From positions 1 to 64,000 of the forward strand of contig JAUCBJ010006460.1 of assembly GCA_032718475.1 (NCBI GenBank): 64,000 nt of DNA. Reading direction: 5' to 3'. The stretch comes from Nemertoderma westbladi. Its lineage: Eukaryota; Animalia; Xenacoelomorpha. A program made the position numbers and the translations under genes. The notes under the pieces were generated by a model, which made no database searches, was not told the origin of the DNA, and saw nothing but the letters and a program-made list of their open reading frames with translations. Numbering within the stretch: position 1 is the stretch's first letter; each line of letters opens with the position of its first letter. Shown here one piece after another: positions 2,318-53,589 of this stretch.

Positions 2318-5300
2318 CCCTATTAGTACCGGGCTATAAAATGTTGTACAAATACCGGGAGGGGGTCATATTGACCCCCCCCCCCCCCCCTCTAAAATCT
2401 ACAAATATTTACGAAAACGTCTGATTTTTTGTTTGTACGTAGGTATCACTTGTCTGGATCCGACCGAAAAAAAAAATTTTCGAAAAAATGTACTGGGGTG
2501 GTTATATTGCAGCACCAAAATTACAAGTAGTGCACAATTTTCACAAAATTTGAAAGTTACATTTTCGGCTAATTATTTTTCAATACAGGTTTTTTGGGGT
2601 GCAAAATACATTGTAAAATATTTAAAAATGATGTGATTACTATAAATGGCTGTTTAGTCCTCTCTGCGTAGGAAAAAAATGAAAAAAACAAGTAACCAGC
2701 ACTTTTCAGTTAGAACACAAAATTTTTAATTCACTTATACGATGCTATAAATTCACATTTTCAGGTTTTCGAGGGCGCTGATTCTAATGGAATACATTTC
2801 TAATATGCCAGATCATTGCTACTTGTATTTTTCGGCGTAATTTAGCAAATTTTGGTGCTAGCACCAAATTTCGCACCCATCACCAAAAAGTACAAGTTTG
2901 CGATGTCCAGTGCCTTTTTTTATTGATTCCATCGGATTCAGGACCATCATAAACCCGTATAACGCAAGAAACAAGGTGATACTATCTACTTATCAATTTG
3001 CATATTTTCCAAAATTTGGTGCTGGCACAACAATTTTCACCCACCGGCGAAAAATACAAGTTTCAGAACTCTTATGAAATTTTTTACTGATTCCATTGAA
3101 TTCAGAACCATCACAAACCCGTATAACGCAAGAAACAAGGTGACACAATCAATTGGGCTCATTCCAAAGTAAAGTACGGGACATTCGTACACAATTTTAA
3201 ACTTTGATTGCCTGTACAATGTTATCCACAGCACATATGTGCACAAAATTGTGCTTGGATTAAACTTTCGAATATCAGCTTTGATTTCGCGAAGCTTATG
3301 GCGGGACTTAGTCACTTTTGAGAAAATGCCAGCTTGTCCAATTAAGGTAAAGTACGGATTCGTACGAAATGGTATTTTTTAATTTATGATTTCAATTCTA
3401 AAATTTAGCGAATTGTGCGCAGGTACGGTGTTGAGTTGATGTTTAGGATAAAGCTGTATTATTAAGCTTAAATAAACATATAAATATAAGACGAATTGCT
3501 GCATTGCTAATTTTTTACAGTGTGGTTTGTGTGGTAAAGTATGGGACATTGCTAAGTAAAGTACGGGACCTGTACGAATTTTATGGTCAAAATGGTCTCT
3601 TACACTTAAACTAACAGTAATTTCTGGATAATTAGTGATAATAATGTGCAACTAAGTATTTCCAACCAAGATATGGATACAAAATGTGGGGCGGCCCACA
3701 AATTGACCCGAAGTCTTAGCATATGGGTGCCCTTAGGAGTTGTATGTCATCTGTCTAATTTTTGATCGCTAATACTGTATATCTCGGTCATTTTTAGATG
3801 AAATTAAACCAAACCTGGTACGTATGAAGTCTGTCAAAAGTTTGGAAAGAATCTGAAGTTTAAGGAATCAAAGGTCACATATCAGACAGTCTGTCTGTTG
3901 GTACCGATAGTTTCAAAATTTTGATAAAAACCGAAATAAGTCCGCCATCATTGATGAAATATAACCAAACTTGGTATGTAGTCTGTAAAAAGTTTAGAAT
4001 TTCTTTCAATTTTTCTGAAAATGTATCAATTACTGTACTTACCGATCTTCTTCTCTGCTAAAAAACTAAATTTTTTGAAATTTGTTGTAAAGTACGGGAC
4101 TTTACATGCATAAACTCAAAGATTAGTTAATTGAGGAATGATTCTTAGTTCAAATACATACTTCTATGATTCCCCCTACCATCACCCTAAAGCATTATAA
4201 CACTCCTGCCCTCCAGGTTTCATATATTACATTAATACAGTGCACTAATGTAATCGCCATTATAATGGTAAAGTATGGGACAATTTTCAATTGGCCGTTA
4301 TGATGTTTCTGAGGGAGTAGATTATGAAAACTACAGGTAATTGTTTCTTAAGATGACGCAACACAAACGTGCTTTGCATTCCACTGGGTGATTGGGCTGA
4401 TTTATACTACTTCTCTGTGTATAAATTAAAAATTTCACTATTTTTTGGTAAAGTATGGGACTTTACATGCATAAACCCAAAGATTTCTTGACTGAGGAAT
4501 GATTCTCAGTTCAAATATAGACTCCTATTCTTACGGCCGACTATGACCTTAGAGTATTATAACACTCCTGGCTTCACATATTACATTAATACAGTGCACT
4601 AATATAATCGCCATTTTGATGGTAAAGTATGGGACAATTTTCAATTGGCCGCCATGATATTTCTGAGGGAGTGAAGATGAAACTAATTGTTTTATACGAT
4701 GACGCAACACAAACGTGCTTTGCATTCCACTGGGTGATTAGGCCGAGTTACATCTCTGTGAATAAACTAAAAATTTCACTATTTTAGGTAAAGTATGGGA
4801 CATCACAAGATTAACTTTATCGATTTCATTACAGAGGAATGAAACACTGGTGAAATTAAATGAAACCAAAAAAATTCGAAAATGGGTTTGTTTTTGATTT
4901 GGTACATGCTCAGACATGTTAATTTATTGGTCATGGGAAGTGCCTACAGGAAACGAAACTTTTGCACACTTTTATTCACATTTTGTGCAGAGCAGGTGCA
5001 TAATTTGTAATTCGACTATTTTTGATAAACCACCTGTGTTGATACAATTTTTAGCACTGAATTCATGAAGTACGATAAATTTTGACCTAAAATAAGTATA
5101 AATTCAAAGCTACATCTCATTTTTAGAAATTAGTGGGGAGGTTGACCTTTTCATGGAATGAGCCATTGATATATTTGATGGTTTTCAAAATTTGGTGCTA
5201 GCACCACATTTTGCACCCACATCCGAAAAATACAAGTTTGAGATGTCTAGTTCGATAATTATATTTTCCATTGAATTCAGAACAGCCATAAACCTCTAAA

Positions 5301-5893
5301 ACGCAAGAAATAAATTGTCACAAGCAATTTTATATATTGAATGGATTTTCAAAATTTCGTGCTAGCACCAAAATTAGCACACAGCACCGAAAAATACAAG
5401 TTTGATACGCTTGGTTCAACTCGTATATATTTCATCGAATCCAGAACCTCAAAAAACCCCAATTGCGTAAAAAACAAGTTTCAAACAATCAATTTACAAA
5501 ATTGACTTATTTCAAAATTTGGTGCTGGCACCAAAATTTGGCACCCATCGAAAAAAACAAGTTTGAAATTTCTAAATCAATTTATATGAATTCCATCCAA
5601 TTTCTAAGACCAAAAAACCGGTGTAAATCAAAAATAGAGATGTTACAATTCATATTTAATGAAATGTAATTTTCAAAAAACGTCTCAAAAAAAGTGCCAA
5701 AAGTAGGGTTTAAAAATGGTGCTATAACTCGAAAAGTGCCTAATATTTTTGAAAACGGTTTTCACTACCATGAAGACAATAGATTTTTAGGAAAAGTCAT
5801 AAAATTTCAGATTCCCAACTGCGTATGTTTCAGAATTATAATAAAAAAACCACGGGGGGGGTCATATTGACCCCCCCCCCGGGTTTAATAGGG
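2318..5893 (+). mobile_element. Non-autonomous piggyBac-type MITE, copy 1 (~1.55 kb plus a 2 kb nested insert)
   Basis: TTAA|CCCTATT...AATAGGG|TTAA. Subterminal GGGGGTCA(TA/AT)TGACCCCC palindromes and internal ~120-bp repeats with TGGTGCTAGCACCA. Same as 17336-18889 and 62608 onward. Confidence 0.85.
3156..5164. mobile_element. Non-autonomous TIR element with a 4-bp TSD (Sola-like or unclassified) inside the MITE
   Basis: GGCTCATTCCA...TGGAATGAGCC flanked by ATTG/ATTG. The empty site CAATCAATTGATAT is seen in the other two MITE copies. Superfamily is uncertain. Confidence 0.75.
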
Positions 5894-6236
5894 TTAAGGT
5901 AACGTATTCTTAAGCCTATGAAAAATTTTATTACATAAATGCTTAAGAACATAGATATAGATGGATATTCCTTTCCACTGTATATTCAAATTATGTAAGA
6001 ATGCAAACACTCCTGGTTATAAGTTACTTAATTCTTCATTGGAATTCTTCATTAGTCTGTCAGTGCGACAACTCAGCTGTACAGGACAAACATCATGTTC
6101 TACTTCACTGTCCTACAGTACCGTATGTCTCCACATATACGTAGTAAGTTTAGCATCCGGTAGTGCAATCAGATTTGCAGAGCCTTTTTGCCTTGTCGAC
6201 AGAACTTTGGTGCTAACTATTTAATTTTAGTAATTA

Positions 6237-7371
6237 TCAATAAATATAATATATTACTACTAATACAGTATAATGTAAATGCATTGGCAATAATGCCAAA
6301 TGAATCATGAAAGTTTTCCTAAACGAATCACTTGCTTCATCCTCATCGCTCGTTTCACTATCTTCGCCACTATCTTTGCCGCCTTCTTGTTCCTCGTCAC
6401 AATTTATCAAAATATTGCTGATGTCATCAGGGAAATACTCATCCGACCACTGGATGGATCCATCATAATTCCAGCCATTATCTGTGAATCTCTTTATCGT
6501 GATATAATTATTTAGTGATGCTTTCCAGAGGTAAGCAACATAGTTGGCTCGTTTTATATGGAGACTAAGTACTCTTTTACAAGGGGGCATTGTTGACAAG
6601 TCATGGCATCTATGTTTCTTTAGGCAGTGCAATGTTGTTCTTGTTTGGTTGAATACAGTGAGCACACATATTTCTCTAACACCAATTCCGTCTCTGCAGT
6701 TAATATTATCGAGCTTCCAAGCTCGGCAAATATTCTTCTGAAGTTCGAACGCTTTTCAGCTATCTTCCAACAGCGTTTTTTAGATTTTCCAAAGAATGAT
6801 GAAACCTGATCGTTTCCTGTAAAAGCGTGTACTCCTAGTACGCAATCTTTTAGTTCTGTTGGCATTTCGAAATCACTAATTCGCAATACCTTGCGGGATT
6901 TGTTCCTTCCATTATCTAAAATAACGTTTTGATCGTGAGGATGTCGAAAAAAATGTAAACCTTACTTTTATCGGCACTGAAATGGCCCTTTCTTTTTAAT
7001 ATTGAGTTAAAGAATGTCTTGTTGAAATGTTAAAAAAAAATGTTAAAAAATGTTAAAAGAATGATTTTGGGAATTCTTTCTGTATTATCTTTCAGCGACT
7101 CAATATTTGGTAGCTTACCACCACTTATGTTTTCATGTTTGTCTATAAATTCGACAACATCATCATGGATATATTCAGCCGCATTCCTAATTATTATATT
7201 CTTATCTTTGGCTATTGTATTTGATTGCAATGCGGATGAAAAGGGTACAAGTTCTGGAGTTTTCCCATCAACCTGTAAGAAGGTAATTATATCCTTATAC
7301 TCTTGTTGGATCCGCTTCTTTAATGTACTGCGATAACATCTTTCATTGTCTGTACCAAAACCTGTTCCATA
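6237..7371 (-). pseudogene. Academ transposase, central and C-terminal XPG-like fragments (frameshifted; DDE core apparently deleted near 7000)
   Basis: YGTGFG..RCYRSTLKKRIQ.. followed by VLGVHAFTGNDQVSSFFGKSKKRCWK, LEKYVCSLY, MPPCKRVLSLHIKRANYVAYLW..DNGW and an acidic tail. Confidence 0.75.
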
Positions 7372-9360
7372 TGCTTACAAATACCCGTATACTCCTCTGC
7401 CAACCTAATAAGTTCTCGTCTAACCAATAAGACACAAAGACTGCTCTACTGTTAAGTAAAGGGGATCAGGAGCGTGATATTACTAAATTGTAAAGGTTGC
7501 TAAATACAAAACCGCTACTTACCGTTAGATGGCGCTAATCTGCCGTCCGCTAATATAATTTACTAAATTTACACGGCTCCTGCAAAATCGCTTGTTCCTT
7601 TCTCTACCGATCGCTCGATAGAGAGCTAACTGTTCGAATCTATGAGCCACGCGGGAATAACCAAAACAATAAACCCGAGTCGGCTCCCTAAGCTTACTTA
7701 AGACGAGTGCGAGAGGCCTTGCACTCAGAGTATTCTTACGCCTAATTTTATCACTATTAAAGCACGCTATTGCCTACGTCTTTTCTAATCGCGAATACTG
7801 GGGGTTCCCTAACGTAATGTGTGAATGCGAGAATATTTAAATTATCAAAATGGTACAGTATTTGTCTCTACGTAAATAGTACCGCTCCGGGTCTAAACTT
7901 GCCTGCAGCTGGCTTTAGGCCAGCAAATTACTAGCGTGTTGTGCGTACTGGATAGTGCGATCTAGCTGATTGCCCGCTAATGCAAATAACCGCTCAGCGT
8001 GAATAGTTTACAGTACTCGAATTATTACCTTAGCTACTCTCCGCTATGCTGCGTACTAAGTCTTAATTTTACTAATCAATTACAGTCACAAATATGTAAC
8101 AGCGTACTAATTACTAAGAGTTCCAGAATGCGTAATTCTAATTTATTACGTAACAGGTTTCGCTAGTAATAGCCTAAATTGCCGTATTACTTTGACCTAA
8201 TCAGTAATTATTTGTTGTAACTAAGAAATAGAAATCAATCAGCGTCAGCAATCACAGTTCGCAATTATGCAGTTAACTACTGTATAACCCACAGTTGTGC
8301 GATTCACTATTCGTACTCCACACTCTACGCTGTGATACGTGCAGGCCTCTCCCGGGTACACATAGGATTCCTAACTAACCCGATTCTTGCCCCCTAATAC
8401 TAACTAGAGACGAAACCTGGATTATCAGCCCCCTAATTACTGTACCGGCGAATGGTCTGCATACCACAGTGTGAACTACCCGACCGCAACGGTGACCCCC
8501 CGCCAGCGTTGCCCGCCTTTGAATCCTCCGTTCTCCCTTAGTCGCTCAACCCCCCGATGTGCCCACCGCCTACTGGCACCTTAGCCCTCCATTATGCTAA
8601 TAGCTACCGTAGCGGCGCATGCAAATCACAAAGTCTGACAGTCTCAGAAATCCCTTAGGATTATTGCGTAGAAAGGAATCACATAGAACCATTAACAAAG
8701 GATAGAAATCATAGTTCCGGTTGTAATTAGCAGTAATCGATAGGATTAATTGAGAAACAACCCTATCAAAGCTGAAGTTAAGGTTGTAAGGTACAGCTCT
8801 ACCGGCAAACCGCCAATTTATAGGTGATCCGAATGGGGTGATGCAATAGGGTGACTCAATCGCTCTCCTATTGGCTCTCCAGTCCGCGCTAGCACTAGAC
8901 CAACCTGGAAGCAGTTAGTCCAATAAGGAGGCCGGATTGTAGCCCTATTGCTCCCCAAACCTCAAATTATTACCATATATGGTAATGGATCATGTCCCTG
9001 GCTGCTGAATGGCCAGGACAGCGTCCCTATATGCTAGCCCTATTGATGCTAATAACAGCAAGCACAAAATCCAGGGTCCGACTAAACTTGCTACCCTGGA
9101 ACTATCTACCTATATCCTAATACAAAATTACGTAGGTAGGGCTACATATTATACAAAATGGATGGATTCAAATATATGGGCGTTTTGATTTCCCTATCTA
9201 AATATCACCTCGCTATTATACCTTATCTAAAATATTATGCTGCACAACGGACTAACATTACGTACAGTATAACGGACTAATATTGCGTACAGTATAACGG
9301 ACTAATATATTATACTGCATAATGGCTAATAATGTGGATACAGTGCCATATACCGTAACA
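7372..9360 (-). repeat. Probable ~2 kb 3' LTR of family A
   Basis: Starts TGTTAC directly after the same GGAGCGG tract that precedes the family B 3' LTR. CCAAT boxes and TATAAA near 8820; ends ..GTAAGCA. No second copy in the window to confirm. Confidence 0.65.
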
Positions 9361-9832
9361 CCGCTCCAAGGGAAATCATATAATGTTTCCCTCCAACTGT
9401 AGAAGAGTATAAGGTGATGTATACAAACAAAATAAATTTCTTCCAAATAATCTAAATACTTGATACTATAAATCCTACTATTTACAAAATATTGCTATAG
9501 ATATTGCATAATGAATTGCATACAAATTAAATTTACAAATATTATCTCTCTCATTCAAATTAAATTTACAAAATATTGTTTCTCGTTCGTACTACATAAT
9601 GATTACTACATACAAGATCAAATATAAAAATTTTGCTAGGGCAAGTGAAAGGAGTAAGCCAAACCCGCAGGTTTGTCTCCCCAATCACTTCCTTCGCCTC
9701 TCTCATAATATAAATTCAAAACAGCTCAACTAGTGTATATGAGTCTAGTCGAATATTTCTAAAATGCTACAATATACATCAGAGCGACGATGATGTATAT
9801 ATCTAGAGTCTGTCGCCCTGTGCTATAATGTA

Positions 9833-12800
9833 TCATCGACCCGCTCCTGGGTTCTTCGGGCTCGCTCCTCTCTTTCGCCCTCTTCCCAGATACACCAGTC
9901 TACCTCCTGTAGACTCCGTTGACGGCGTCCGTGAGGCGTCACTCCCCGGAACCGGCGACGATGTTCCCTGAGCCCCGACAGATTCCCGGCTCGTGCTTCT
10001 TCCTCGGCCTCGTCCCAATTGTCGTGCTCCCGTGGTCGCTTCCGCCAACTCTTCCTTATGCAGTTGCACACGCGCCTTCTCCGACGCTCCCTGCGCCTTG
10101 CGCTGCAACCGCTGTGCTTCTATAATAGAGTGATAGTGGTCGTCCTTGACTTGACGCTTGTCTTGGACCCCTCCTCCTGGTTCCTTCCGCGAGCCTTGAG
10201 TTCCAGCGGTCGTCGCTGTGGTCGCTGCGATCCTCTGCTCCTGTATCCTCTCAGCGGTCAATGACCCCACTGGCACATGAGTCAACAAGAATTCGTTGCG
10301 GTATTGAATAGCCGCCATCCTCCAATCACCTCGCGCGCGTACCACTTTTCTAGTCTCCGAAAATACACCCTTCGTGATTCGATCGCAAATAGCAACGAAG
10401 TTCCAAGTGTATTTGTTATCCATATTCAACTGTCTGAAGTATTCTCGGACTACGATAACTCCAGTGTTTTGTGGAAGGTCTTGAGCAGTTAGGATGAGTT
10501 CCTGATATTGTGGTAGCGATTGTAGATATGGCTCGTACGCAACATGTGATGGGTCTACCGCCCAAAATCCATATCCCGCCTTGAATGGTAACCAACGCAT
10601 CTGCGCTTGAATATGGTAGTCAGCCACACTCTCCCACTTATCTAACATCTCCCGAAGTAGGTTAGCGCTATGGTTTTGAAAGGAATCATCTCGCAGCTGA
10701 CATCTCGCGCTACGATGTCCCTTTACCCCACAATATCCACATTGAGAAATGAAGACGGTGCACGTGTGAAACGAATGGTCGGTCTCATTACACCAACGAC
10801 AGACCTTATGCGCCGCCTCTACTACCGCGTCGCACGACTTTAGATTGTGCCTTGTGCTGCCGCACAACTTACACCTCCGCGCTTGTGGAAACCAGGCCCT
10901 CTCGTATATGAGGTCTCCAATCGGTTTCGCACTTCCTTCTTTCCCAATGTCTAATACAATGTCGTCCTCTCCGGACAACGGTTGTCGATCCGGAATAAAG
11001 TAAACATCCTCGCCCTTGTCCTCTATCTCCAATATTTCCTCCCGCGTTCGTTTCGGATATGTCTTCTCCACCGGAAGATCTACTCCGAACACCTCTACTA
11101 ACGTCTCCGGCCAGCCCTCCTTAACAGGTCTATCAGCCTCCGAGTGGAAGGGAGTACCAAACCCGCGGGTTTGATTCCCGAACCACTTCTCCAAAGCCTC
11201 TGGCGTCGGATATTCCATCGACGGTCGGTCTCCCAAATCTCCGATGTTCTGTCGATATACTCCTTGGAATATCGCTAATCCTCTCCTAACCATCGACGTA
11301 TTCTCTAACGATTGGTTGAAGAACGGGGTTAAGAAACGCTTCATCACGTCGGATTGGATTCCCCCTTTCGAGCGAACGTATTGATCTCCTCCGAATACCA
11401 ATGGATGACGCTTCAAAACTCGCGCAACGATATCCGCTAATAAACAAGTTAGTGTTCGACTCAAGCACCAAATAATATTGTAGCGACGCACGGGGTGGCG
11501 CGCAAATGTTCCAATACACTAACGCTTGCCGCTTGAAGTGGGATTTGAACTCCGCTCCCGGTGGCGTGTTGTATTCACCATACGCCTCCTCGTACTTCTT
11601 CTGCGTCTTTAACTTAAAGTCCCAATTATACAACAAGTGTGCTATAAAGCCCATACCAGTCTTGGCAGAGTTGGGATACTCCCTATAAAATCCAATATCC
11701 TGTGCCCATAGCAACAATAGCTTGGTGTCGACAAACGGTCTCGGCAATCTATCTTCCAGATCGGTCATGGCGTTGAAGTCGCTCTCCAAATCGCTCTGGA
11801 CTCCCGATCCCACCTTGACGTAATCTTGGTTGAGAATAGCCTCTCTAACTTTCTTGGGTAGCATCCTGGCGTCGATACGCTCCGCTCCGTGCATACCTCC
11901 TCGCCTGCATACCTCCAAAATCTGCTCCCTAGGATCCTTCCCTTTCCGATATTGTGTCGTTATGATGGGCTCCGGTCTCTCTCGATCCGCCCTCACACGC
12001 ATAAACACATGAGTCACACCATCGGCCGCACGAATTTGAATACACTTGCTGGTCATACATTCCTGATGGGATCCTCCTTCATTGTCGTAGAACATCACCC
12101 TCCAATCCTGCAGTGATTCCTCCGTTTTCCTCCACTGACGCTGAATCTCGTCTGATGGGGTCCACATGCGCTCGATAGCCTTGTGGTCATCATATCGGGT
12201 ATAAGAACCCTTCCTCCTCAGCCACGTCTGGTCTACCTCCTCGTCATCTGGGAATGTAGCCACCGCGACCCATACCTTGATGTACTTATCCAACCATCCA
12301 AATAGTTTGCTCTCCTTCCCCGGAGCTCCAATCTTATCCAATGTGTCGTAATCTGTGATCTGCATTGGGACATCACGCAAGAACTTCGCGCATAAAACTT
12401 CCCGTAGACAGTCAACGTTCCAATGATCCGCCATTCTTACCATCGGCAAGAATCGTATCGCTTCTCGCGACTCCGGATGATCTACTAATATCGCAGGTTC
12501 GGTGCCGTCGGAATAATACACCGGTCGGGGTTGAGATACGACCTGTGGAACAAATCCGGTCACTCTCCTCGTCTCCTCTTGATGTCTATCCGCGGCCTTA
12601 TTATACTCCGCTATTCTATTCTCAAATAACTCTTTCGCCTTCGCCGCTCGTTCCTCCTGCCGCAACGCGTCTATGTCGTCCTGATGCTCAGGCGTGAGGC
12701 TTCTCACTCGGTGAGGCGAAGTAAACGCAGTCCAGGGACTCGAGAGCTCCAAACCCGCGGGTTTGGTACCCGAGTCCCGTGCCGCTTCGCGCCGCGCCTC

Positions 12801-13538
12801 TAGATCCTTATAGGCTCGGTATAGCGAAATGGCCGCTGCCGTCTCTATCAAACTGGGTATCGAACAGGGTTTAATCTCCGTATACGGATCTAATGTCGTA
12901 ACGGTCGGCGTAATGGGTCTCGGAGGTCGCTTTCCGCTGAAGTCGATACTGATCATCGGGTTGCTCATCGGGTAACCTCCCTCGTTGTATCTAAGGAACT
13001 GGTGAGCTGGACATCGCGTTAATATCGGTTCTGGATGTTGCTCGTCTAGTCGATCGGAAATCGCTACGTCTTGCTTATTCATGCATTCACCACACTTGTA
13101 GAACAGCTTGTACACGCTGAAGACCTTCGGCGTCTCCTGATCCTCGCCTCGAGTCCTCCGGTACAGATGCATTCCGTCGAACTGATCTCGGACTGCAGGT
13201 AGAGGTTCTTCGTGTCGTAAATACATATTCATATGGTACAGTCGTGCGATCTCCTCATCCGGGTCTGCACTAATGTCACATACATCCAAAGCGAAGTCGT
13301 AGGGATACCGAGTGCGATACTCTCTCCGCAAAACTTCCATCCGGTCCCCCAACGCTCTCATTCTTTCCCTCCGTAATTCCTTATCATAAGTCGGTTTATA
13401 TTTTCCGTTTAGCTCCATCACGGACCGCCCATGGTAGTAAACGTTAGAGTCTTTACATCCTGGTCGCGCGAATGGTAGCTCCGCCTCCTCTCTGGCAGTA
13501 AATCCTCTGCGCGGTTGCGCTCTAATATCCTTCTCCAT
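9833..13538 (-). CDS. Accessory protein (~1230 aa if repaired): DEDD 3'-5' exonuclease-like domain, three CCHC zinc knuckles, RG-rich tail; one frameshift near 11450
   Basis: ExoI FYDNEG, ExoII LPKKVREAILNQDYVKVGSGVQSD, FVDTK, ExoIII W..(x)..LQYYLVLE. Knuckles CKLCGSTRHNLKSC, CRWCNETDHSFHTC, CGYCGVKGHRSARC. The 750-aa and 552-aa ORFs are one frame in copy 2 (59870-60769). Confidence 0.8.
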
Positions 13539-14305
13539 TATGCCTCGCGTATATACATATATATATCACAATAAGTGCCGTTACGTAACCAATTACACAA
13601 ATCAGTTAGATCAGTTACACAGATCAGTTAAATCAGTTAGATGTCGCCGAAAGACAGACCTCCCGACCCCCCCCCCCCCCCCCCCGCTTTCCAGCAGTTC
13701 AGGTTCGACTCTCTAGATCCCGTCTCTTCCTAACTAACTATCCTCTAACCTATTCCCATGCATAGCGCAAAACTTTGGAGATAAACTGGCCGTGACCAAC
13801 TCACTTTTTGATGCCCAAACTACTCCCATTACTCATACTAAACTACAGTAGTTAGAAAGGACCATAGCCACAATACTCGACTATACCAAACCCACAGTTT
13901 TGATAATCGAACATCACACATCACTGCAAACTACTGAGTGGGGTCCATGTACGCCTCTGGTTGCACTGTTGGCACCAATCTGTGGAAGTTGCTAAACTCA
14001 ATTTACACTCCTACGTAATATAGCCATCACCATGGTTTCTAAATGCTATTTTCCAGGCTTCACGACTTTTCAAATTACTGTTTATCTATAGACGAATTTT
14101 AAAACGCGTCTATACACAGCGTCTGGAATTGTCTTGGGTTCACTTCTAATTTTTAAAATTTTAAATTTTCCAAAATATTTTTGAAATAAAATTTTGTTTT
14201 GATACCCACCAGACAAAACTTAACGCAAATCACCACAACCCCGCTCCTATGCATTTCCTTGTATCTGCATACGAGGAATGCATACGAAGTGAGTTGCGTC
14301 TAACA

Positions 14306-15683
14306 CTAATTCTGTTTTGAGGCAGGAGACAAATTATAATCTCCCGTCTCGATACGTGTCTCCTCTAATAACACGATATCTTGGACCGGTCGGTCCAAGG
14401 TGTGTAAACCATTAGTTTTACACTTTTTTGGGTGCGGACACTTGCACCTAATTTTCACAGTGACTGTGCGCACTATGTTTTGCACGTCTGGGTGTGTGTG
14501 CAAGATCACTCCCGTCTCCCAATACTTTCTCTTGACAATAGGCTCGGTTATCAATACGTAATCTCCTCTTTGGAGACTCCGAACCGTTTTGTACCACTTT
14601 GTTCTGGTGGATATGGTGGGAAGATAATATTCCCGCCAATATTCCCAGAATGTGTACGCGACAAATTGAGTCATTTTCCAGCTCTTACGACTATATAGGT
14701 CGGCACTAATGGGTTCTGATGCCGGCACAAGAAATGCTGGACTCTGCATTAGCAAATGATTCGGCGTTAATGCAACACCGTCTGGCAACATAGCTATCGG
14801 CCTCGAGTTTAGTGTATGCTCGATTTCGATGAAAGTTGTAACCAGTTCGTCGTCGGTAAGTTGTTTGTTTACAGGCAATGTTTTGGCAATGGCCTGCTTT
14901 ACAGAGCGAACTAAACGCTCCCAACTTCCTCCTCTCCAAGGACTTTCTGGAGTATTAAATCTCCACTCTACTCTTTGCGGCAAAAGTGCTGCAGAAATTT
15001 CCTTATTCTGTGCCGCTTTATGAGCCGCGTTCAACTCGCTATTCCCTCCGACAAAGTTTGTACCCTTATCAGAGTAGAACGCCTTTACTAGTCCTCTCCT
15101 GGCCATAAATCTCTTTAAGGCCAGGAGCAGAGATTTGGTCGACATGTCTGCCACACGCTCGATGTGTATGGCTCTACTAGCCATGCATGTCAGTAGCAGA
15201 CCCCATCGCTTGTGGGTCAGCCGTCCACTCTTTGCTTCAATCGGACCAAAACAGTCCACCCCTGTGTTCGTAAAGGGTGGGTCATATGCCTGCACTCTCG
15301 CTTCCGGGAGTTCAGCCATCTCCTGTTCCAATACTCTGGCGTTCACCCTCTTGCAAACCAGACAGGCGTCGTACATAGTGCCTACTGCCCTGCTTGGCTG
15401 CAATAGAATGAATCGCTGTCTCGCTGCCGACAAACAGTGTAACCTTCCAACCCGTGATGCAACCTCTTGTGTATATCCCATAGAATCGCTCTTTGCAATT
15501 CTATTGGGTGACTAGGGATTATCACTGGGAACCGAAACTGTGAGTTTATGTCGACAGTCTGAATTCTCGATCTATGACAAATCAAACCCTTATGGATTAA
15601 TGGACTCCATTTTCTAAGGGGTTTATAGAGAACTGGTCGTTGAGCCGATAATAGATGGAATTCTTTCGGGAAGGCACACATTT
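14306..15683 (-). pseudogene. BEL/Pao integrase (HHCC region, DDE core, C-terminal DUF5641-like region), frameshifted near 15460-15510
   Basis: PPFTNTGVDCFGP, SDKGTNFVGG, PWRGGSWERLVRSVK, LNSRP, LTPNHLL, FWEYWREYYL, RPVQDIVLL. Confidence 0.92.
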
Positions 15684-16226
15684 TCAGAATCGACAATATT
15701 CCTTCTCTGTGTATTATTAAGGCGGGGTAGCTCAGTTGGTTGAGCACCGGGCCTGCAATCTAATGATTGTAGGTTCAGCCCCGCCAGGGTCCACTCAGCC
15801 TTTCATCCACTGGGGTCGATAAAATGAGTACCAGTTAAATAACTGGGAGCAAATCTTGGGATAGGAGTAGCGCCCACCCCTACCCTCGGGTAGCAGCTAT
15901 CGAAAGAGGAGCCTTAGGGTCGCCTCCGGCTTCGGCTGACTGTTTGCTTTTGCTTTTTTTGTGTATTATCTGGTTGTCGACGACTTCTTTAACTTTATCA
16001 AAATCCCCAACTTGATTTTCCGATTTATCCTTAGTTTGAGTTTCACGTATAATTCTTGTGTATGATGCATAACAATCATCATGGACACACACACCTTTGG
16101 CAATTAAATTTACACTTTGTAACTCCAAGAGTAATTTAGAATCGTTTCGTTGCAAAGCAGCATCTTTTACTCTTTTATCGGCATCAAGAGTTAAAATCCG
16201 GTGAGCAGATTTCCATTTACCTTTAA
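15684..16226 (-). pseudogene. Academ transposase, N-terminal region part 2 (split by the SINE)
   Basis: KDAALQRNDSKLL..NLIAKGVCVHDDCYASY (Academ-type DLIA.E..YH..CY motif). The frame is restored across both the Kolobok and the SINE insertions. Confidence 0.7.
15718..15959 (+). mobile_element. tRNA-derived SINE with a Nin/Deu-like central domain
   Basis: A box TAGCTCAGTTGG and degenerate B box GGTTCAG. Core CTCAGCCTTTCATCC..GGGGTCGATAAAATGAGTACC. (TTTGC)n/T tail. 10-bp TSD TGTGTATTAT (15708-15717 and 15960-15969). Confidence 0.85.
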
Positions 16227-17335
16227 GGTGGCTCAACATGAAAAATTGAAAAAAACTAAAAAAAAAATATTCCTATAGATTTTAACTCTAAATGATAAAT
16301 ATTTGTGTTGGACATGTTTTGGTGGCATCAGGATAATCATTTCATGCACCAGAGACCCATATAAGCATGAAATGTTCATTAGCGGTAATGTAAATTTGCG
16401 ATTTAAACGTCATTTTCTGCCGCTTGCATTTATCGCGTGCCAGTTTCATTCATGTACCTATTCCTCAAAAACTACTGAAGGAAGATGTATGAAATTTTGG
16501 GACCTTGTACAGAATTTCCAGATCTTTCTTAATGGCCTCAATGACATAAATCCATCAATGTGTTTGGGTTTGCCAATGTTTCAAACTCAAAAAATTATTT
16601 TTGACTTTGAGACCGTGGCAAGCACAACCACATTGATGAATCTATGTCATTGAGGCCATTTAGAAAGAGCTGGAAATTCTGTACAAGGTCCCAAAATTTC
16701 ATAACTATACCTTCAGTAGTTTTTGGAAAGAGGTGCATGAATGACAACTGCACACGACAAATGCAAGCGGCAGAAAAAACATGTTTAAAGTTCAGTGAAT
16801 ATGTAAACTTTAATACATTCGATCATACAATTATTTTCATTCGATCATACAATTATTTTACAATGTAAAAACACAATTATATTTATAGCAAACAGCAACT
16901 ATATAACTAAGGAGCATGGAGTATATCAAATACATAAAGTGGTCTAGAACATTCCACTATCATATGTTTTCGGCCCAGTAGGAAGTTTTCGTTTCCGCCT
17001 TTGTCGCCATAGAATTCTAGACTGGCGCTCTAATTTGGATATTTTCCGGTCAGCCTGCAGGATTCGCTTTCGGTCAAATGTCTGAAAATCCTTAACCGTT
17101 TTCTTTGAACTACTGACAAGTTGGTCTAGGACACCAACTCGTCCTTGATAACCGTCATTGAAGCATATAACTGCATCATTTATGCCAATAGAGAGAGCTT
17201 GTTTACTAATGAAGACCCTCTTCGGGCATCGGCTCCAAGCGAGATTATTGAGGCCTTCATTCCGATTTTGTGTCTGACCATGAAGGCATTTAGATAACAT
17301 TTCCGGTTCTGACAATGCCTTGTAGATAGGTTTAA

Positions 17336-18889
17336 CCCTATTATACCCGGGGGGGGGTCAATATGACCCCCCCCGTGGTTTTTTTATTATAATTCTGAAA
17401 CATACGCAGTTGGGAATCTGAAACTTTATGACTTTTCCTAAAAATCTATTGTCTTCGTGGTAGTGAAAACCGTTTTCAAAAATATTCGGTACTTTTCGAG
17501 TTATAGCACCATTTTTAAACCCTACTTTTGGCACTTTTTTTGAGACGTTTTTTGAAAATTACATTTCATTAAATATGAATTGTAACATCTCTATTTTTGA
17601 TTTACACCGGTTTTTTGGTCTTAGAAATTGGATGGAATTCATATAAATTGATTTAGAAATTTCAAACTTGTTTTTTTCGATGGGTGCCAAATTTTGGTGC
17701 CAGCACCAAATTTTGAAATAAGTCAATTTTGTAAATTGATTGTTTGAAACTTGTTTTTTACGCAATTGGGGTTTTTTGAGGTTCTGGATTCGATGAAATA
17801 TATACGAGTTGAACCAAGCGTATCAAACTTGTATTTTTCGGTGCTGTGTGCTAATTTTGGTGCTAGCACGAAATTTTGAAACTCCATTCAATATATAAAA
17901 TTGCTTGTGACAATTCATTTCTTGCGTTTTAGAGGTTTATGGCTGTTCTGAATTCAATGGAAAATATAATTATCGAACTAGACATCTCAAACTTGTATTT
18001 TTCGGATGTGGGTGCAAAATGTGGTGCTAGCACCAAATTTTGAAAACCATCAAATATATCAATTGATTGTGTCACCTTGTTTCTTGCGTTATGCGGGTTT
18101 GTGATGGTTCTGAATTCAATGGAATCAGTAAAAATTTCATAAGAGTTCTCAAACTTGTATTTTTCGCCGGTGGGTGAAAATTGTTGTGCCAGCACCAAAT
18201 TTTGGAAAATATGCAAATTGATAAGTAGATAGTATCACCTTGTTTCTTGCGTTATACGGGTTTATGAGGGTCCTGAATCCGATGGAATCAATAAAAACAG
18301 CACTGGACTTCGCAAACTTGTACTTTTTGGTGATGGGTACGAAATTTGGTGCTAGCACCAAAATTTGCTAAATTACGCCGAAAAATACAAGTAGCAATGA
18401 TCTGGCATATTAGAAATGTATTCCATTAGAATCAGCGCCCTCGAAAACCTGAAAATGTGAATTTATAGCATCGTATAAGTGAATTAAAAATTTTGTGTTC
18501 TAACTGAAAAGTGCTGGTTACTTGTTTTTTTCATTTTTTTCCTACGCAGAGAGGACTAAACAGCCATTTATAGTAATCATATCATTTTTAAATATTTTCC
18601 AATGTATTTTGCACCCCAAAAAACCTGTATTGAAAAATAATTAGCCGAAAATGTAACTTTCAAATTTTGTGAAAATTGTGCACTACTTGTAATTTTGGTG
18701 CTGCAATATAACCACCCCAGTACATTTTTTCGAAAATTTTTTTTTTTCGATCGGATCCAGACAAGTGATACCTACGTACAAACAAAAAATCAGATGTTTT
18801 CGTAAATATTTGTAGATTTTAGAGGGGGGGGGTCAATATGACCCCCTCCCGGTATTTGTACAACATTTTATAGCCCGGTACTAATAGGG
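17336..18889 (-). mobile_element. piggyBac-type MITE, copy 2 (uninterrupted, 1554 bp)
   Basis: TTAA on both sides and CCCTATT/AATAGGG ends. Excision restores the Kolobok frame DAIKPIYKAL. Confidence 0.88.
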
Positions 18890-19180
18890 TTAATGGCATC
18901 AGTCACAGCACGTGGTAGTGAGTTTCTGTGTACATAACATTTACCTTATTTCTGTGCCTGTTTAAACTTGCACCATCGATCAGAACATAACTAATGGCTT
19001 GGACTCTTGTCGGTAGAGCACGTATGAAAGAAAGATGCCCATATAGCCTTCTTCATTTCCCGAACAGAGGAGTTGTTTTCCCTTATGGCTCTACCATAAT
19101 AGAGCTGGAGACTATCAATCTTGTCATCAGTCAGACGACCTCTTTCCCCTATCACTTTTTTGTCAGCCAGTTTCTTCCTT

Positions 19181-20550
19181 ACTCTATGGTTCTTTTCGGA
19201 GAATCTCATTGATCTCGATTGCTGCAAAGCTATACAATAGGATTCTATTAAATCGCATCAGGGATCCCATTGAGAGACTGCTCCGTGGAAGTCAGAATGG
19301 GTTCCGTAAAGGTCGTGGGACCATTGTGCCCATTTTGGCACTTAGAAGGATAATTGAAGAATTATCAAAAAAGAAAGACAGGCATCTGGCTGTTATCTTT
19401 GTTGACTTCTTCAAGGCCTTTGATTCAGTCTCTCGGTCACGTATGTTCAGCATACTTTCATTATATGGGATTCTTGATGAAATTATTGCAGCAATCAGAT
19501 CAATATACGATGGTTCGACAACATTTGTGTCTACTGTTGACGGTGACACAGAACCATTTGAAGTGTTATGGGGCGTCCTCCAAGGAGACACACTTGCACC
19601 ATTCTTGTTCATTATTGTGGTTGACTATGTTCTACGCATGTCCTTAGATCATCATAATGATGATGGGGTGATGATAACTCCACCTACTGGCTCCAGGAAA
19701 TCCTGCCAAGTACCTAACTGATCTAGACTTTGCTGATGACTTAGGAGTACTCTCAGAATCATTAGAGGGAGCCCAACGGCTCCTCAGCTCATTAGAACAT
19801 GCTGCTTCTAGTGTTGGTCTTTTTATTAACTCCAGAAAGACCAAAATTCTGACAGTTAACTTTGAAAGTCCTCAGCAAGTCTCTGATCGGATGAGCATAA
19901 GCTCAAAGGATGGTATGCTTGAGCATGTGGACGACTTCTGTTACCTGGGATCATGGATCCGGAAGTCAGGTGAGGACCTTCGAATACGTAAGGGAAAGGC
20001 ATAGGCAGCCTTGAATAGGCTTTCCAGGATTTGGAAGTCACCTAGAATTAATCGGAAACTTAAGGTTCGATTATTTAGAGCAGCAGTAGTTCCAGTACTC
20101 CTCTATGGGAGTCCATGCTGGGCTCTAACTGCTGAGGACACCAAATCTCTGGATGGCACATTCACAAGAATGCTACGCCGGGTTCATTGTGTCAAGTACA
20201 ATGCACACATCTCCAACCAGACACTATATAACATTGGAGGTGTCTCATTGGTTCCCCCAAGCTTGACACTAGAACAAAATCGCCTCCGCTTTGCAGGACA
20301 TTTCTTTCGCCGTGAGGACCAGCCAGTGCATAATCTTGTACTTTGGCAGCCTCATGGAGTGAATAAGCATGGTGGACAGCCCATGACTTTCTTGAGACGC
20401 ATCCTAAAGGACACTGGCCTTAAAGATGCGGATGATCTACCAAATGTCATGGGTGATAGGGAGTTGTGGCGGTGCAATTTTGTTGACAAGCAGGCACAGC
20501 ATTCTTAAAAATGCAGCTGCAATGCAGCATGCCGATCCTAGTAGTACTAG
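19181..20550 (+). mobile_element. 5'-truncated RTE-like non-LTR retrotransposon (RT C-terminal half), frameshifted
   Basis: QNGFRKGR, FVDFFKAFDSV, GVLQGDTLAPFLF, DLDFADD, LLYGS..W.LT, RLRFAGH. Short 3' UTR with a (TAG)n-like tail. TSD TCCTT (19176-19180 and 20551-20555). Confidence 0.88.
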
Positions 20551-24056: not shown

Positions 24057-25501
24057 TTTGGCGTATCTCATTTTACTAGGTTTTAGTAATTTTCTGACCA
24101 AAACAATACCGTGCGCTAGTTACGAAAATAAGCTAGTCGCGTTTTGTAGAACTTTATACTTACAAATGACGTCAAAGCTCTCTCCTTCCTATCCACAACT
24201 CAACCGGGCAACCACGGTGTTAGTAACTACACCCGTGATCGGCACAAATACCAGATTCTGGTTGTAAGATAAGAAATAGGGGTTAATTGCTACTTTACGT
24301 TAGCTGATCTGGTATACAAATTTGATTCTAGAACTTTGTTGCCGCGGTGGTTAGCAGCAATACCTATCAGTACGTGGCAAGGCGCGGTAGGATATTAATA
24401 AACCTCCCTAGGCCAAGCGAAGTGCCGGTAGCAGAAATACTCCTTGCCTGATCAAATAACTAAGGTTCAGACAGGGGGGGGGGGGGGGGGGGGGTACTAA
24501 TGTATGTTCTACAAACCAAACCGGTACCGAACTGTCAATATTACGAATCACTAAATTATGGAACATATGCTGTCTGTACCTAATATGTACTCGCGTACTG
24601 ACGAACGGCAATAGTTCGCACCTGTAAGAGATACAGGTTAACCCAGGGATTTGTAATACGGAGGTTTTGTCTGAATCTAACTATTTGATCCTAAATTTTG
24701 CGGTGTCCCAGGACGGCGTCACGCTTACCCTGATCTATAGGTCTTGCGTCGGGCAAGGGCGTCAAACAAAGTCTTACCTTCCTCGGAAATCGGGCGCTGC
24801 ATGGCAAGGTGGAGTATTTCGAAGGGCGAAGGGGGTGCGCGGTCTAATCTAATGTGGACATCTTCCCTGCGTTGCTGACGGCCTAACGGTCTAGGCGGCC
24901 ATCTTCCCAATGCTTAGCTGTCCCAATGGTGGACGTTTGGAAATATACATGTTCAGAAGTTTACAGTATATTTACAGTTTTACAAGGATTTATCAAACAG
25001 ATTACTAGATTTATAACAAAAGAAACCAATACTAAGTTAACAAGAGTTAACATTAGTGAGCAAGTCCAAGACTGATAACTAGAATGATAACCGAAGGCAA
25101 ACCAGCCCTTATATACTAAACCTGGGACATAGAATCCGCTAGAACCTTCCAGAGCATTCCATGGCCTCACATTGGAGCAATAAGATGTTCCATGCCCTAT
25201 GATTGGCCCAACTCATCGTTCCATATGTTGTACGCACCTCATTGGTTTATCAAATTATATCAAATGAAAATAAATTGCCCAAAAATGCAAATTTCCCGAC
25301 TGGAATTCGAACTCGTAACCTATCTGTAATGTAACCAAAGCCTTAACCATCTGACCACTGCGCCATTAGATTACCTACGGGTTTTATGTGTACCAATATG
25401 AATAGGCATATTACATTACTGTAATTTAATCAAAATGCGTCGGATTTTAGAAAGTTTTTACGTTAACTACAAATGCTATTTTATAGTGAAATAATCCATC
25501 A
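24057..25501 (-). repeat. Family B 3' LTR, proximal part (U3/R side)
   Basis: Matches 33437-34936. Begins TGATGG on the minus strand after GGAGCGG (25502-25508). Confidence 0.9.
25295..25364 (-). ncRNA. tRNA-like Pol III cassette in U3 of the family B 3' LTR
   Basis: GTGGTCAGATGG (A box), GAGTTCGAATTC (B box), T5 run about 10 nt downstream; anticodon arm degenerate. Confidence 0.5.
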
Positions 25502-26195: not shown

Positions 26196-28858
26196 CTATT
26201 CCTTAGCCGAACGGGCTCGTCCACGCCCTCTAATACGATTGGGTGGTGGTCCGGATCGAACTGGACTCGGACTTCGGTGTCGAGCTGTCGGTGGTTCCAA
26301 ATCGCTAGGAAAGGGGACGACGGGAGTTTCACACATCCGTCGTGCGCTCAGTCCTCTAAATCCTCGTCCGATTCCAATCGTTTGCTTAACATTGGATCGA
26401 GTCTCCACAATGCTAGGAGGAAGTCGAAAGGGTGGGACTGTTCCGTCCTCTGACACCTCGCTCTCTGACGTTGTCTGAATTGTAATGGGTTCCGGCAAAG
26501 CATATCCTGTCCGTCCGCATGGTTCTCTAGCGAGGGAAACCGTGCCCCGAGTCATCCGGATTTGCGACTTCGATGTCATCCTCTCGGCGACATTTACTAC
26601 CTTCTTTATCTCTTGTCCGGCCTTCTGGGCTCTAAGTATACGAAGTTGCGGATCTTCCTGTGGGTGTTGAGTCTTTTCGGTTAATGGTGTGGCCTTGAAG
26701 CCAGTCTCACGCAGAACGTCCGCCTCATCTAGAATACACGAGGTTACGCGTTTGTGATAAAATGCGCTCCGGTATGCCCAAGCTATCGAATGCCAGGCTC
26801 CTCGATTCTGCTGTTCGACTCGCAATTTGTCGAATTCCCCGGTGGTAATCTTGTTCACAACAGTTTGAAAGTTCCATGTGTTCTTATTGTCGGGGTGTAC
26901 CTGTAGAAAGTAGTCCCGAACAACCTTAAATCCGCTATCCAAAGGCAATATATCCAGCACCTCCAAGAGTTCATCGTATTGAGGCATAGCTGACACGTAT
27001 GTCGACATTATGAGAGGGATTACGGCCCAAAATCCCAAGTGTGCTCTCATAGGGAAACGACGTCGCTGTGTCGATACAAGCTCGTCTGCTAGATTCTCCC
27101 AATGGTCGAATAGCTGTCGAATGATTTTAACTGACATATGCTCATAGGGGATGTCCCTAAGTTGACACTCTGATGCCCTATGACCTTTAATGTTACAATA
27201 CGTGCACTGCACCACGAAACACCAGCAAGTGTAGAAAGTGTGCGAACATTGATCCCCACACCAGTTACATACTAAGTCCAGTAGAGATATATGTTTCGCT
27301 CTGCATTTCTTTGCATGGTGGCCAGTTGCCCCGCATCTGCCACAAATAGTGTTGGCAGGGTACCAAACTCGCTCATAGATGAGATCTCCGATGGGGCGAG
27401 CGCTACCGTCCACGTGATAATTTTCATCATCCGGGTCAGTCGGTATGTTCGTCTCCGTAGGTTGTACACAAACCATGGCATCGTTTTTCTCCAACTTGCG
27501 TATCTCAGTTCGCGTCTTCCTCGGAAGGTTCTCCTCTATCTCTATGAGTTGCCGCAACGGTTCGTCTATTATCGCAAACTCGGTCGGATCCACATCGTCA
27601 TGATGGGCGGTAGGCTCGCGAGCCTTCCAGGATCCTTCCGGGCCTTTGAATTCCGCATGGCGTTCCCCGTCGTAGGGTACTAACGTCAACATCGACGGTC
27701 TGTCGACTAGGCTTCCCACGTGAGTGAGATAGACGTCCCTGAAAACGCTAAGTCCCGCTCGCATGAAAACTTCGCATTGCGCATCGGTGTTATAAAATGG
27801 TTGGAGAAATCGGCGGAATACATCAATATGCGTCCTTCCTCCGTCGTAAAAGGTATGTCCTTCACCGAGACATAACGGATGTCACTTTAGAGTCCTAGAC
27901 ACTACATCGGCGATGAAGCAAACGTTTACCGAAGATTCTATCGCCAAATAGTATTGCAAGATTATTCGTGGAGGTGAGGTAATCGCCCAGTACACGCAAC
28001 CTCGCCACTTTAACTGTGACTCAAACTCGTTTACGCCGGGGGTATCTCCCTCACCGTATACGTCCGTGTATTTGCTCCTCTTGCTCTCCTTATAATCCCA
28101 ACTAAACATTAGGTATGAGATATAACCCATTCCAGTTTTTAGCGTGTTATACTCCCTGAAATATCCTTGCTCAATAGCCCAAAGCAACAATGGTCTAGTA
28201 TCCACGTATGGCGTAGGCAATCGATCCTCCTCCGTGGGCATTCCTGCGAAATCGCTAATAAGGTCATCCCGTACACCGGATCCGATCTTGACGATACTTT
28301 TATCAAGTACAACGTCTCGTACGGCCTTTGGAAACATTCTAGCTTCTATGCTACAAGCCAGGTCCATGGATTTAACTATCCGTTTTATCATCGTGTGCCT
28401 TTGCGTCGTTCCTTCCGGCATAGGCATCTTATTGTCGCTCCTCTGTCGGCTGAAGACATGTAACACGCCATCTGGTGCTCGAATCTGTATGGTCTTTGAA
28501 GTGAGGCTTTGCTGATGGCTTCCTCCTTCATTATCGTAAAACATATAACCATTCCCCTTCAGAGATCGGCTAGTTGCGTCCCAATCGTCGAGTAAATTGT
28601 CGGTAGGTTTCCAAATTCTCCCTATTGACTTTTCATCGTCGAAACTAATAGGTTTTCCGGTCCAATTGGTCGCAATATCGGTGTCAGTCTCAAACGTGCC
28701 GACTCCGATCCATAATCGTATCGTTTTCGTCAGATATCCTCGCAAGATGCAAGGTGCGATATCCGTCCCCGCGATCCACTGCCTTAAAGTCCGTAATATG
28801 TGGAGGCACGTTGCATACGATTTTCTGTACTATCGTTCTACGCAACTCGGCTGACTCT
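26196..28858 (-). pseudogene. Family B accessory exonuclease plus CCHC knuckle ORF (N-terminus lost; frameshift near 28750, in-frame TGA at 27882)
   Basis: FYDNEGGSH, FPKAVRDVVLDKSIVKIGSGVRDD, YVDTR, KTGMG, LQYYLAIE, ARPIGDLIYERVW and three CCHC-type knuckles. Alignable with family A throughout. Confidence 0.82.
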
Positions 28859-38404: not shown

Positions 38405-39613
38405 ATTGTAAATTATGTCTGTTACAAATTAAATCAGTTAATCCAGAATTAAATTAAATTAAATTAAATCCAGAAAGTCTGATTCTATAGCGACTGCAGA
38501 ATAGTTATTTTTAATGTAGTTAATATTATTGCTATATAGGCATCTACCATCTTATTGCTACTACATTCAGTATTTACAGTTACTATAGCTATACATTATT
38601 ATCCAAGCAGTTTTTTGACTTTTTATGTCCACTTCTTTTTCAAATTATTTTTCCATTCTAAATGTTATACTTTTTTTTGTCTTTTTTATTTCTAAAGTTT
38701 ATACATTTCACATTTCATTTCATTTCTTTCACATTTCATCATTTATCCCACATTATATCATTTATTCCATCATTACATCATTTTATTCACCATCACATCA
38801 TTATTACACATTTCATTGGGGTTATAGCCCCCCGGCTTTCATCATTGGTTATAAGCGCAAAGCATCAGGGTGCGTCATACGCGTCATTCATACGCGTCAT
38901 CATTCAGTTTATAGTTGAGTTATCTGTTTCTTTTCATCATTTCTAATTACATTCAACCATCTTCTTGGGTAATTTTCGTTGTGGAAGGGGTGTTACGCGG
39001 CAGTCTGGGATCTACAGCTGGACTCGTTACACCGCCTACACCCCAAACTGCACACATAACGGACAATGAATAGAATGCTGGAAGTGAAGTCACGTGGAAT
39101 GCACCAGGGACCCACCAGAATAACACTCCCAGAAACATAAAGCTCAGCCGACGAAGTCACGTGGAATGCACCAGGGAATCACCAGAATAACGTGGCTGAG
39201 GAACATAACGTCTCTATCGATAAAGTCATATAGAATGGTGTTACGCAACATTCTGGGATCTACAGCTGGACTCGTTACACCGCCTATGCCCCAAACTGCA
39301 CGTAACGGTTCCACCAGAATAACGTGATAGACGGGGTGTTGCGCGGCAGTCCGGGATCTACAGCTGGACTCGTTACACCTCCTACGCCCCAAACTGCACA
39401 CGCAACGGACAACACAATACAACACAATGGATACAATGAATTCCACTTCGAATCTTTCTCATTTCCGATAATCCAAGGTAGTTGGTCCTGATGACCAAAA
39501 TCAGGGTGAACAAAACATAAACTACCCTGCGTCAGTCGAACCATCAGCAGGGTGATGCTGGACTCCACTTAACACACGAGGAAACACAAATACCATGCGT
39601 GGTTACAGTTGGT

Positions 39614-45909: not shown

Positions 45910-45949
45910 TTTGTAATATTGTTCCTATTTAATAGTTAATCTAATTAAT

Positions 45950-49204: not shown

Positions 49205-49214
49205 TTAATGTAAT

Positions 49215-53534: not shown

Positions 53535-53589
53535 GTAAGACAATACCAACAACCACTAAACTGTGACTGCCAGAAAGTAGCAAAGAGAG

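Follow-up and report, generated by a model that had tools for sequence, protein, structure and literature searches.

A gene encoding a predicted DEDDy-type 3'-5' exonuclease with serial zinc knuckles was found behind the integrase of BEL/Pao retrotransposons, which have long terminal repeats (LTRs), in Nemertoderma westbladi (Xenacoelomorpha). The analysis covered positions 1 to 64,000 of the forward strand of contig JAUCBJ010006460.1 (GenBank assembly GCA_032718475.1), and this whole stretch is called the window here. The gene, termed ORF3 (open reading frame 3), is present in the window in four homologous copies. Three of them lie behind a BEL integrase and belong to two lineages, between which the integrases share 33% identity. 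Neutral evolution is excluded, and ORF3 as a whole has been conserved as strictly as the integrase. Judged from its sequence, ORF3 very probably encodes an active metal-dependent 3'-5' exonuclease.

Layout and conservation of ORF3

In copy 1, ORF3 lies on the minus strand in the sense of pol, as do all features of copy 1 given below. It consists of two overlapping frames, one of 759 amino acids (aa; 11286-13565) and one of 561 aa (9833-11518). Counted from its ATG (13538) through to its stop (9833), ORF3 has about 1,234 codons, with a single frameshift near 11450. The frame upstream of ORF3 is an integrase frame bearing DUF5641 (Pfam E value (E) 8e-18), and its stop at 14306 lies 768 base pairs (bp) ahead of the ORF3 ATG. 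The original prediction, made from the letters of this DNA alone, had placed a sense frame of ~1230 codons ~770 bp past the integrase stop, in agreement with these values. The non-coding spacer between pol and ORF3 (13539-14305) is 81% identical to its paralogue. Just 5' of the ATG, at 13595-13640, short tandem repeats containing TCAGTT and a TA-rich run were observed, possibly an internal promoter region. A homopolymer tract of G or C, ~20 or more bases long, lies within the spacer (13670-13690); similar tracts occur behind copy 4 (36070-36098) and in an LTR-like repeat (24470-24495).

The 5' frame (11451-13538, aa 1-696) encodes an N-terminal extension of ~440 aa (12200-13538) and the predicted DEDDy-type 3'-5' exonuclease domain (11440-12200). 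The nuclease spans only about aa 450-700 of ORF3. Past the frameshift, the 3' frame (9833-11431) encodes a linker, three zinc knuckles (10700-10873), a helical domain (10313-10690) and a low-complexity basic tail (9836-10130). The order of nuclease motifs that had been read from the sequence (FYDNEG, LP..V...I.....VKVG.GV..D, FVDT, W..YxxxE) was found throughout. The ExoI DxE is FYDNEG (12092-12075), followed by MLPKK at 11864, the ExoII aspartate in VKVGSGVQSD (11819-11790), FVDT at 11735, VYW at 11519 and the ExoIII YxxxE as YYLVLE (11477-11460). The fourth catalytic acid of copy 1 is E and not D. Likewise, the three knuckles expected are exact CX2CX4HX4C matches, starting at 10873, 10801 and 10741. 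The tail described as RG-rich does contain arginine-glycine (RG) dipeptides; their number is modest, with only 4 RG in the last 100 aa.

As had been proposed, ORF3 does not have the features of an env gene. No membrane segment was predicted (maximum 19-residue hydropathy of 0.97 in copy 1 and 1.48 in copy 2), copies 1 and 2 have no furin-type RxK/RR site, and copy 1 has no hydrophobic N-terminus. Since a signal peptide, a furin site and a transmembrane (TM) anchor were all lacking, an env identity of ORF3 was rejected. For the N-terminal ~440 aa and the conserved helical domain behind the knuckles, no relative was found in Pfam or the PDB; the helical domain recurs in the distant relatives described below. 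The best PDB match of the N-terminal extension, a viral L protein (E 0.045), was treated as chance. The extension is far shorter in the remote copy 4, and a subfamily found in three sequencing runs lacks the part at 13063-13393.

Selection was determined as the ratio of nonsynonymous to synonymous substitution rates (dN/dS) between copy 1 and copy 3, using the Nei-Gojobori method on gap-free, stop-free codons with 300 bootstraps. Since dS is near 1, and with one sequence pair compared, the values are rough. The 5' frame had a dN/dS of 0.10 (682 codons) and the 3' frame of 0.11 (526 codons), i.e., not near 1. The lowest values were observed for the knuckles (0.05; 0.00-0.12) and the nuclease (0.06; 0.03-0.10). 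The N-terminal extension followed with 0.11-0.13 (aa 1-300, 0.13), and the tail, with 0.21, is under weaker selection. The integrase, analyzed as a control, showed 0.08 and 0.10.

Fold and family of the predicted nuclease

The Pfam check suggested with the original prediction returned zf-CCHC in copy 2 (E 2e-4), but no exonuclease family: at E of at most 1, no family matched either frame of copy 1, nor the nuclease part of copy 2 or copy 4. A phmmer search of the PDB with the copy-2 domain gave no match. A word-indexed search across 5.8 billion proteins yielded 903 candidates, none of which held, and further such searches returned only the query. Viral contigs and phage records contained no ORF3 match; metagenome contigs contained none for copy 1 and otherwise only the contig of the relative P0002 itself. 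The ESM Atlas grouped the domain with WRN-like PF01612 proteins (cluster at 0.94); the recognition score was lower than the tool considers comfortable.

A profile of the window copies was then compared with 1.84 billion representative proteins and gave seven matches at E of at most 0.001, none below 1e-10. In five of the seven (P0003-P0007), the nuclease and the linker are followed by the knuckles and then by the same helical domain as in ORF3. P0008 is shorter and lacks ExoI. In P0002 (contig L001, 124-2022), the ExoI glutamate and the ExoIII motif are lost, and two complete knuckle-plus-helical modules stand in tandem. The seven proteins belong to clusters of 1-3 members, and none of the seven matched PF01612. 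The family alignment A2 matched P0003 with a probability of 97% (E 2e-11, 516 columns). A nuclease alignment was made from seven sequences, namely two of the window and P0003-P0007, which are 16-51% identical; P0002 and the P0008 cluster were left out. The catalytic D, E, D and Y are invariant in all seven domains, and the last acid is D in three and E in four. The putative ORF3 nucleases can be recognised as an orphan family of proteins, one that escapes Pfam.

Compared with the PDB, the nuclease profile gave 6 rows, among them EXD2 (E 0.006), Egalitarian (E 0.025) and WRN (E 0.96). A viral library gave giant-virus 3'-5' exonucleases (best E 8e-4). A first fold of 710 aa from a four-row alignment was discarded, with a predicted local distance difference test score (pLDDT) of 33. 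The AlphaFold2 model of the copy-2 nuclease domain reached a pLDDT of 65 and a predicted template modelling score (pTM) of 0.67. Its core runs through three strands, helix, strand, helix and strand, with a long last helix. Foldseek returned five matches at E of at most 0.001, all of them EXD2 (E 6e-4). VIA-align against 48,161 chains gave 12 at a Z score (Z) of at least 8 (best 9.2), all DnaQ-like domains, and every one of the 50 rows listed was a DnaQ-like exonuclease or a polymerase with such a domain. The WRN exonuclease had a Z of 8.9 (root-mean-square deviation 3.8, 136 residues aligned), RNase D also 8.9 and Egalitarian 7.8. Many of the structural neighbours handle RNA, i.e., EXD1, Nibbler, Egalitarian, Rrp6 and RNase D. 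The DEDDy/DnaQ-like fold that had been anticipated was thus recovered by modelling and structure comparison. By this model, the predicted fold class (DnaQ-like) is secure; the nearest subfamily is not.

The best PDB match of the whole-family profile was the RNase D of Trypanosoma brucei (TbRND, 7c42; E 1.9e-8), with both domains matched. The top ESM Atlas cluster of P0004 was a euglenozoan protein with PF01612 and zf-CCHC (0.88), which is taken as a lead only. L001 (3,685 bp), the only contig of a relative that was read, carries the P0002 gene, then ~1.35 kb of non-coding sequence and then an acidic frame running off the end. No pol is visible on these 3,685 bp, which leaves an LTR element neither demonstrated nor excluded. 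The assignment of the ORF3 family to BEL/Pao comes from the N. westbladi genome only.

BEL/Pao linkage and the host elements

Linkage of ORF3 homologs to BEL pol, on which the original prediction depended, was observed for three of the four copies. Copy 3 (57884-61599, plus strand) lies behind its own integrase remnant (56164-57121), whose integrase is 84-85% identical to that of copy 1. Its nucleotide identity to copy 1 is 78% over 5.2 kb including the integrase, with many breaks; compared with copy 1, it is interrupted by several stops, and six indels disrupt the frame. In both copies, gag to reverse transcriptase (RT) is lost. Copy 4 (36608-38470, minus strand) is remote and broken, with IYDNEG, the ExoII D, knuckles and traces of the helical domain. 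It was detected by a profile built without it (E 4e-7 for the nuclease and 8e-9 for the knuckles); the residues of ExoI and ExoII are present, and ExoIII could not be placed. Ahead of copy 4 stands a decayed but complete BEL gag-pol (39614-45924, minus strand) in the order gag, protease (PR), RT, RNase H (RH) and integrase (IN). It shows DUF1759, a knuckle, the protease, an RT with YVDD, an integrase with H2C2, and DUF5641 (E 1e-27); this is the integrase that shares 33% identity with the copy-1 integrase. Copy 2 (26196-28829, minus strand) has no pol adjoining. It contains one stop (27882-27884), and its 5' end is cut by an insertion. Across the nuclease region it shares 47% identity with copy 1, and in the part that follows 33%.

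The element of copy 1 is a fragment (7377-15682). The BEL/Pao integrase remnant with DUF5641 occupies 14306-15682, and the element is cut off upstream of it. The empty site was found in two DNA sequencing runs, in which a contig at flank depth (~106-116) joins 7376 to 15683. At the ends of the fragment, no target-site duplication was found, and no primer binding site was identified. Behind ORF3, an octamer resembling a polypurine tract (9361-9368) is followed by TG. The window contains this 10-mer at two places, behind ORF3 of copy 1 (9368) and behind copy 2 (25509). Behind copy 2, it borders on one member of a pair of 1.45 kb LTR-like repeats (24057-25501, minus strand; twin at 33437-34936) that are 94% identical to each other. 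Since the same 10-mer abuts the repeat behind copy 2, a start of the 3' LTR of copy 1 at 9360 is supported, and a truncated 3' LTR is placed at 7377-9360. The proposed position of ORF3 ahead of a 3' LTR is thus backed by the tract with TG (9368-9359) and a step in depth, but the twin of this LTR is missing in the window. An LTR-like pair surrounds copy 2 only.

Depth summed over contigs, which is no copy number, was 19,000-54,000 for ORF3, 35,000-140,000 for 7317-9535 and 41,000-103,000 for the integrase part, with ~100 for the left flank. A single 174-base contig inside ORF3 reached a depth of 7,733 where the flank contig had 116, which would agree with a copy number in the tens to hundreds. 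In both runs, 98% of the depth at the frameshift site comes from contigs whose length there is not that of copy 1, and the break is therefore private to copy 1.

Several further repeats were observed. The flank of the copy-1 fragment (6237-7376 and 15683-16400, minus strand) is low-copy and contains coding remnants resembling a transposase, presumably Mutator-type or similar, and a SINE-like (short interspersed nuclear element) repeat at ~15720-15900. The LTR-like repeat of copy 2 contains a tRNA-like segment (~25365-25295) not called by ARAGORN, which found no tRNA gene. Both copies of this repeat terminate at an identical letter, abutting the two halves of another repeat (388-1129; 1130-1708 inverted). 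A further family (28859-30436, 52902-54529 and 61649-62289) combines an LTR-like piece of ~640 bp with a BEL gag-like 5' end, with 67% identity between two copies; behind copy 3, the ~640 bp piece stands by itself as an inverted insertion. A remnant of a non-LTR retrotransposon RT (RVT_1, E 3e-17) lies at 19047-20508 on the plus strand. Satellite arrays with units of 33 and 65-68 bp and a dispersed element with 163 bp tandem units were found at 49140-52900, 2841-3155, 5165-5897, 17330-18900 and 62604-64000.

Proposed function and comparison with known systems

Since the catalytic residues are invariant across ~20% identity, ORF3 would be expected to be a working two-metal nuclease. RNA is the probable substrate, because ORF3 resembles trypanosome RNase D. 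As ORF3 has its own ATG behind the pol stop, it is presumably expressed as a separate protein. A separate gene behind pol that is absent from most of the family suggests an accessory advantage and not a core step, and a stand-alone gene in an accessory slot would fit a role outside the polymerase. In the proposed mechanism, the three knuckles would bind single-stranded RNA and present the 3' end of this RNA to the catalytic centre of the nuclease; small RNAs of host silencing, or the precursors of these, would thereby be cut short or degraded. Such small-RNA counter-defence is the leading candidate for the role of ORF3, with somewhat less than an even chance of being right. In its widest form, the proposal is that an old, widespread BEL/Pao clade encodes an RNA-silencing suppressor, i.e., a knuckle-guided exoribonuclease over-trimming the precursors of PIWI-interacting RNAs (piRNAs) and small interfering RNAs (siRNAs), and that the seven orphan proteins mark this clade in other hosts. 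In this full form, it is rather unlikely to hold.

Several observations weigh against counter-defence, an RNA substrate or catalysis itself. The 3' end of mature piRNAs carries a 2'-O-methyl group, an obstacle to enzymes of this type. As many structural neighbours are DNA enzymes, with WRN, the Pol I proofreading domains and diDNase ranking as high. The VIA-align Z scores are middling with tied top rows, and the half of the model containing ExoIII has a pLDDT of 40-66. The match to 7c42 comes mostly from the knuckles (25.6 bits vs 10.5 bits for the nuclease). The linker between exonuclease and knuckles is ~190 aa long in ORF3 and 28 in TbRND, as far as the latter is described in the text consulted. 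Judged from the sequence of P0002, catalysis would be dispensable in at least one lineage. The data do not tell counter-defence from a role in reverse transcription.

Such a role, doubtful but the best placed of the alternatives, would have the nuclease work in the virus-like particle on the nucleic acid of the element itself, with knuckles that act like a nucleocapsid in getting the nuclease packaged. Substrates, just as tentatively, would be the 3' end of the primer or genomic RNA, or non-templated or unpaired 3' bases of the cDNA before strand transfer and integration. The knuckles are indeed of retroviral nucleocapsid type, selection on ORF3 equals that on the integrase, and the top fold matches are EXD2 and WRN, which act on DNA and hybrids. 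In addition, the report on DEDDy ORF3s of rotifer elements, in the text consulted, names 3'-end processing of element RNA first (PMC5408684). However, for most BEL/Pao elements, gag and pol, with no more than env in addition, suffice for replication, so that the step cannot be essential, and ORF3 lies outside the Pol polyprotein.

An RNA-binding adaptor with little or no catalysis, routing element RNA in the germ line like Egalitarian or EXD1, is improbable. Egalitarian was the second match of the nuclease profile and a fold match, the fourth acid is E in four of seven sequences, and the site of P0002 is degenerate. On the other hand, all catalytic positions are kept in the seven aligned domains at ~20% identity, and a D-to-E change is also described for the rotifer frames (DEED) in the available text of PMC5408684. 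A slightly poorer chance still is given to proofreading of reverse transcription, as by the ExoN of large nidoviruses, permitting a larger element. Proofreading domains of family-A polymerases are among the top fold matches, and ORF3, the spacer and an LTR of ~2 kb would push a full element, which was not seen, above the 4.2-10 kb of known ones. Against this, the serial knuckles and the separate frame suit RNA handling better, and the nidoviral case goes with genomes of at least 20 kb, according to the part of PMC7968707 consulted. For viral domains of this kind, the same text holds precedents for both proofreading and immune suppression (PMC7968707). Passive cargo, i.e., a recently captured host gene, for which it could be said that L001, the sole contig read around any of the seven outside proteins, shows no pol, is very improbable and was rejected, being largely refuted by dN/dS between copies 1 and 3 (0.05-0.13 across parts of ORF3). 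In addition, ORF3 is intron-free and occurs in two lineages, and the 1.84 billion representatives gave seven matches in all and no host-type orthologue.

If small-RNA counter-defence applies, ORF3 would be the first gene of an animal LTR retrotransposon to counter host defence by means of a nuclease. Little is known of the counter-measures of animal retrotransposons to piRNA/siRNA defence, and what nuclease ORF3s do has been a question ever since they were reported from rotifers. The family offers a compact, testable case, with intact catalytic residues, integrase-level selection, two distant BEL lineages, high copy number, natural relatives with open frames, and TbRND as a solved model enzyme.

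Host proteins with PF01612, i.e., EXD2, the WRN exonuclease, Mut-7/Nibbler, EXD1 and Egalitarian, share the fold and the motif order with ORF3. They differ in that ORF3 is only 10-19% identical to them, below Pfam detection, and in the YxxxE found in this genome. None of these proteins is known to be element-borne or to carry a knuckle module like that of ORF3. In nematode Cer elements, an RNase D-like domain was reportedly noted by Malik et al. in 2000. A cluster of uncharacterised PF01612 nucleases in Caenorhabditis is not linked to elements in the part of the source consulted (PMC3985635). Env-bearing Belpaoviridae (Tas, Cer7, Cer13, Atlas and roo) share the gag-PR-RT-RH-IN order, DUF1759, DUF5641 and a third gene behind the integrase, which encodes a fusogen there and a predicted soluble nuclease here. 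The ICTV (virus taxonomy committee) profile of the family lists only gag, pol and env for elements of 4.2-10 kb; the ORF3 family extends this repertoire.

TbRND likewise has a DEDDy domain followed by serial CCHC knuckles (fold match Z 7.7), and its knuckles are needed for RNA binding and strongly raise cleavage, according to the text consulted (PMC7797062). In the same text, TbRND is a host mitochondrial enzyme for U-tailed guide RNAs, whereas ORF3 is element-borne (PMC7797062). TbRND, as described there, has four knuckles and ORF3 three, and the helical domain of ORF3 is absent from TbRND. The surroundings of ExoII in ORF3 (KVGSxVxxD) are nearer to EXD2 and WRN than to TbRND.

The closest precedent is the DEDDy ORF3s of the gypsy-like Juno1/2 and Vesta2/5 and of Terminons in bdelloid rotifers, whose function was untested there (PMC5408684, to the extent consulted; retold in the accessible parts of the reviews PMC6431247, PMC5718144 and PMC6338049). 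These also are RNase D-like DEDDy nuclease genes behind pol, in the env slot, without TM or coiled-coil segments and with intact catalytic residues apart from one D-to-E change. According to the same partial text, however, the rotifer elements are gypsy-like and Penelope-like elements (PLEs), and here they are BEL/Pao; the changed motif, compared by description only, is DEED there and DEDE here. Serial CCHC knuckles are not described in that text, which gives only a Cys-His-Cys motif in some ORF3s, and purifying selection, shown here, is not shown in it. The literature searched contained no BEL/Pao exonuclease; subscription papers, Repbase, Dfam, GyDB and supplements, notably the element sequences of PMC3118150, lay outside the search. 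In term searches of the available text, "exonuclease" was absent from PMC3118150, PMC9094657, PMC2774666 and PMC12451622, and "nuclease" from PMC554778. Given the rotifer ORF3s (PMC5408684) and the knuckle layout of TbRND (PMC7797062), both as far as consulted, novelty is lower than had been claimed. The idea of a DEDDy ORF3 is already known, and the BEL/Pao host, the triple knuckle with the helical domain and the evidence for selection appear to be new.

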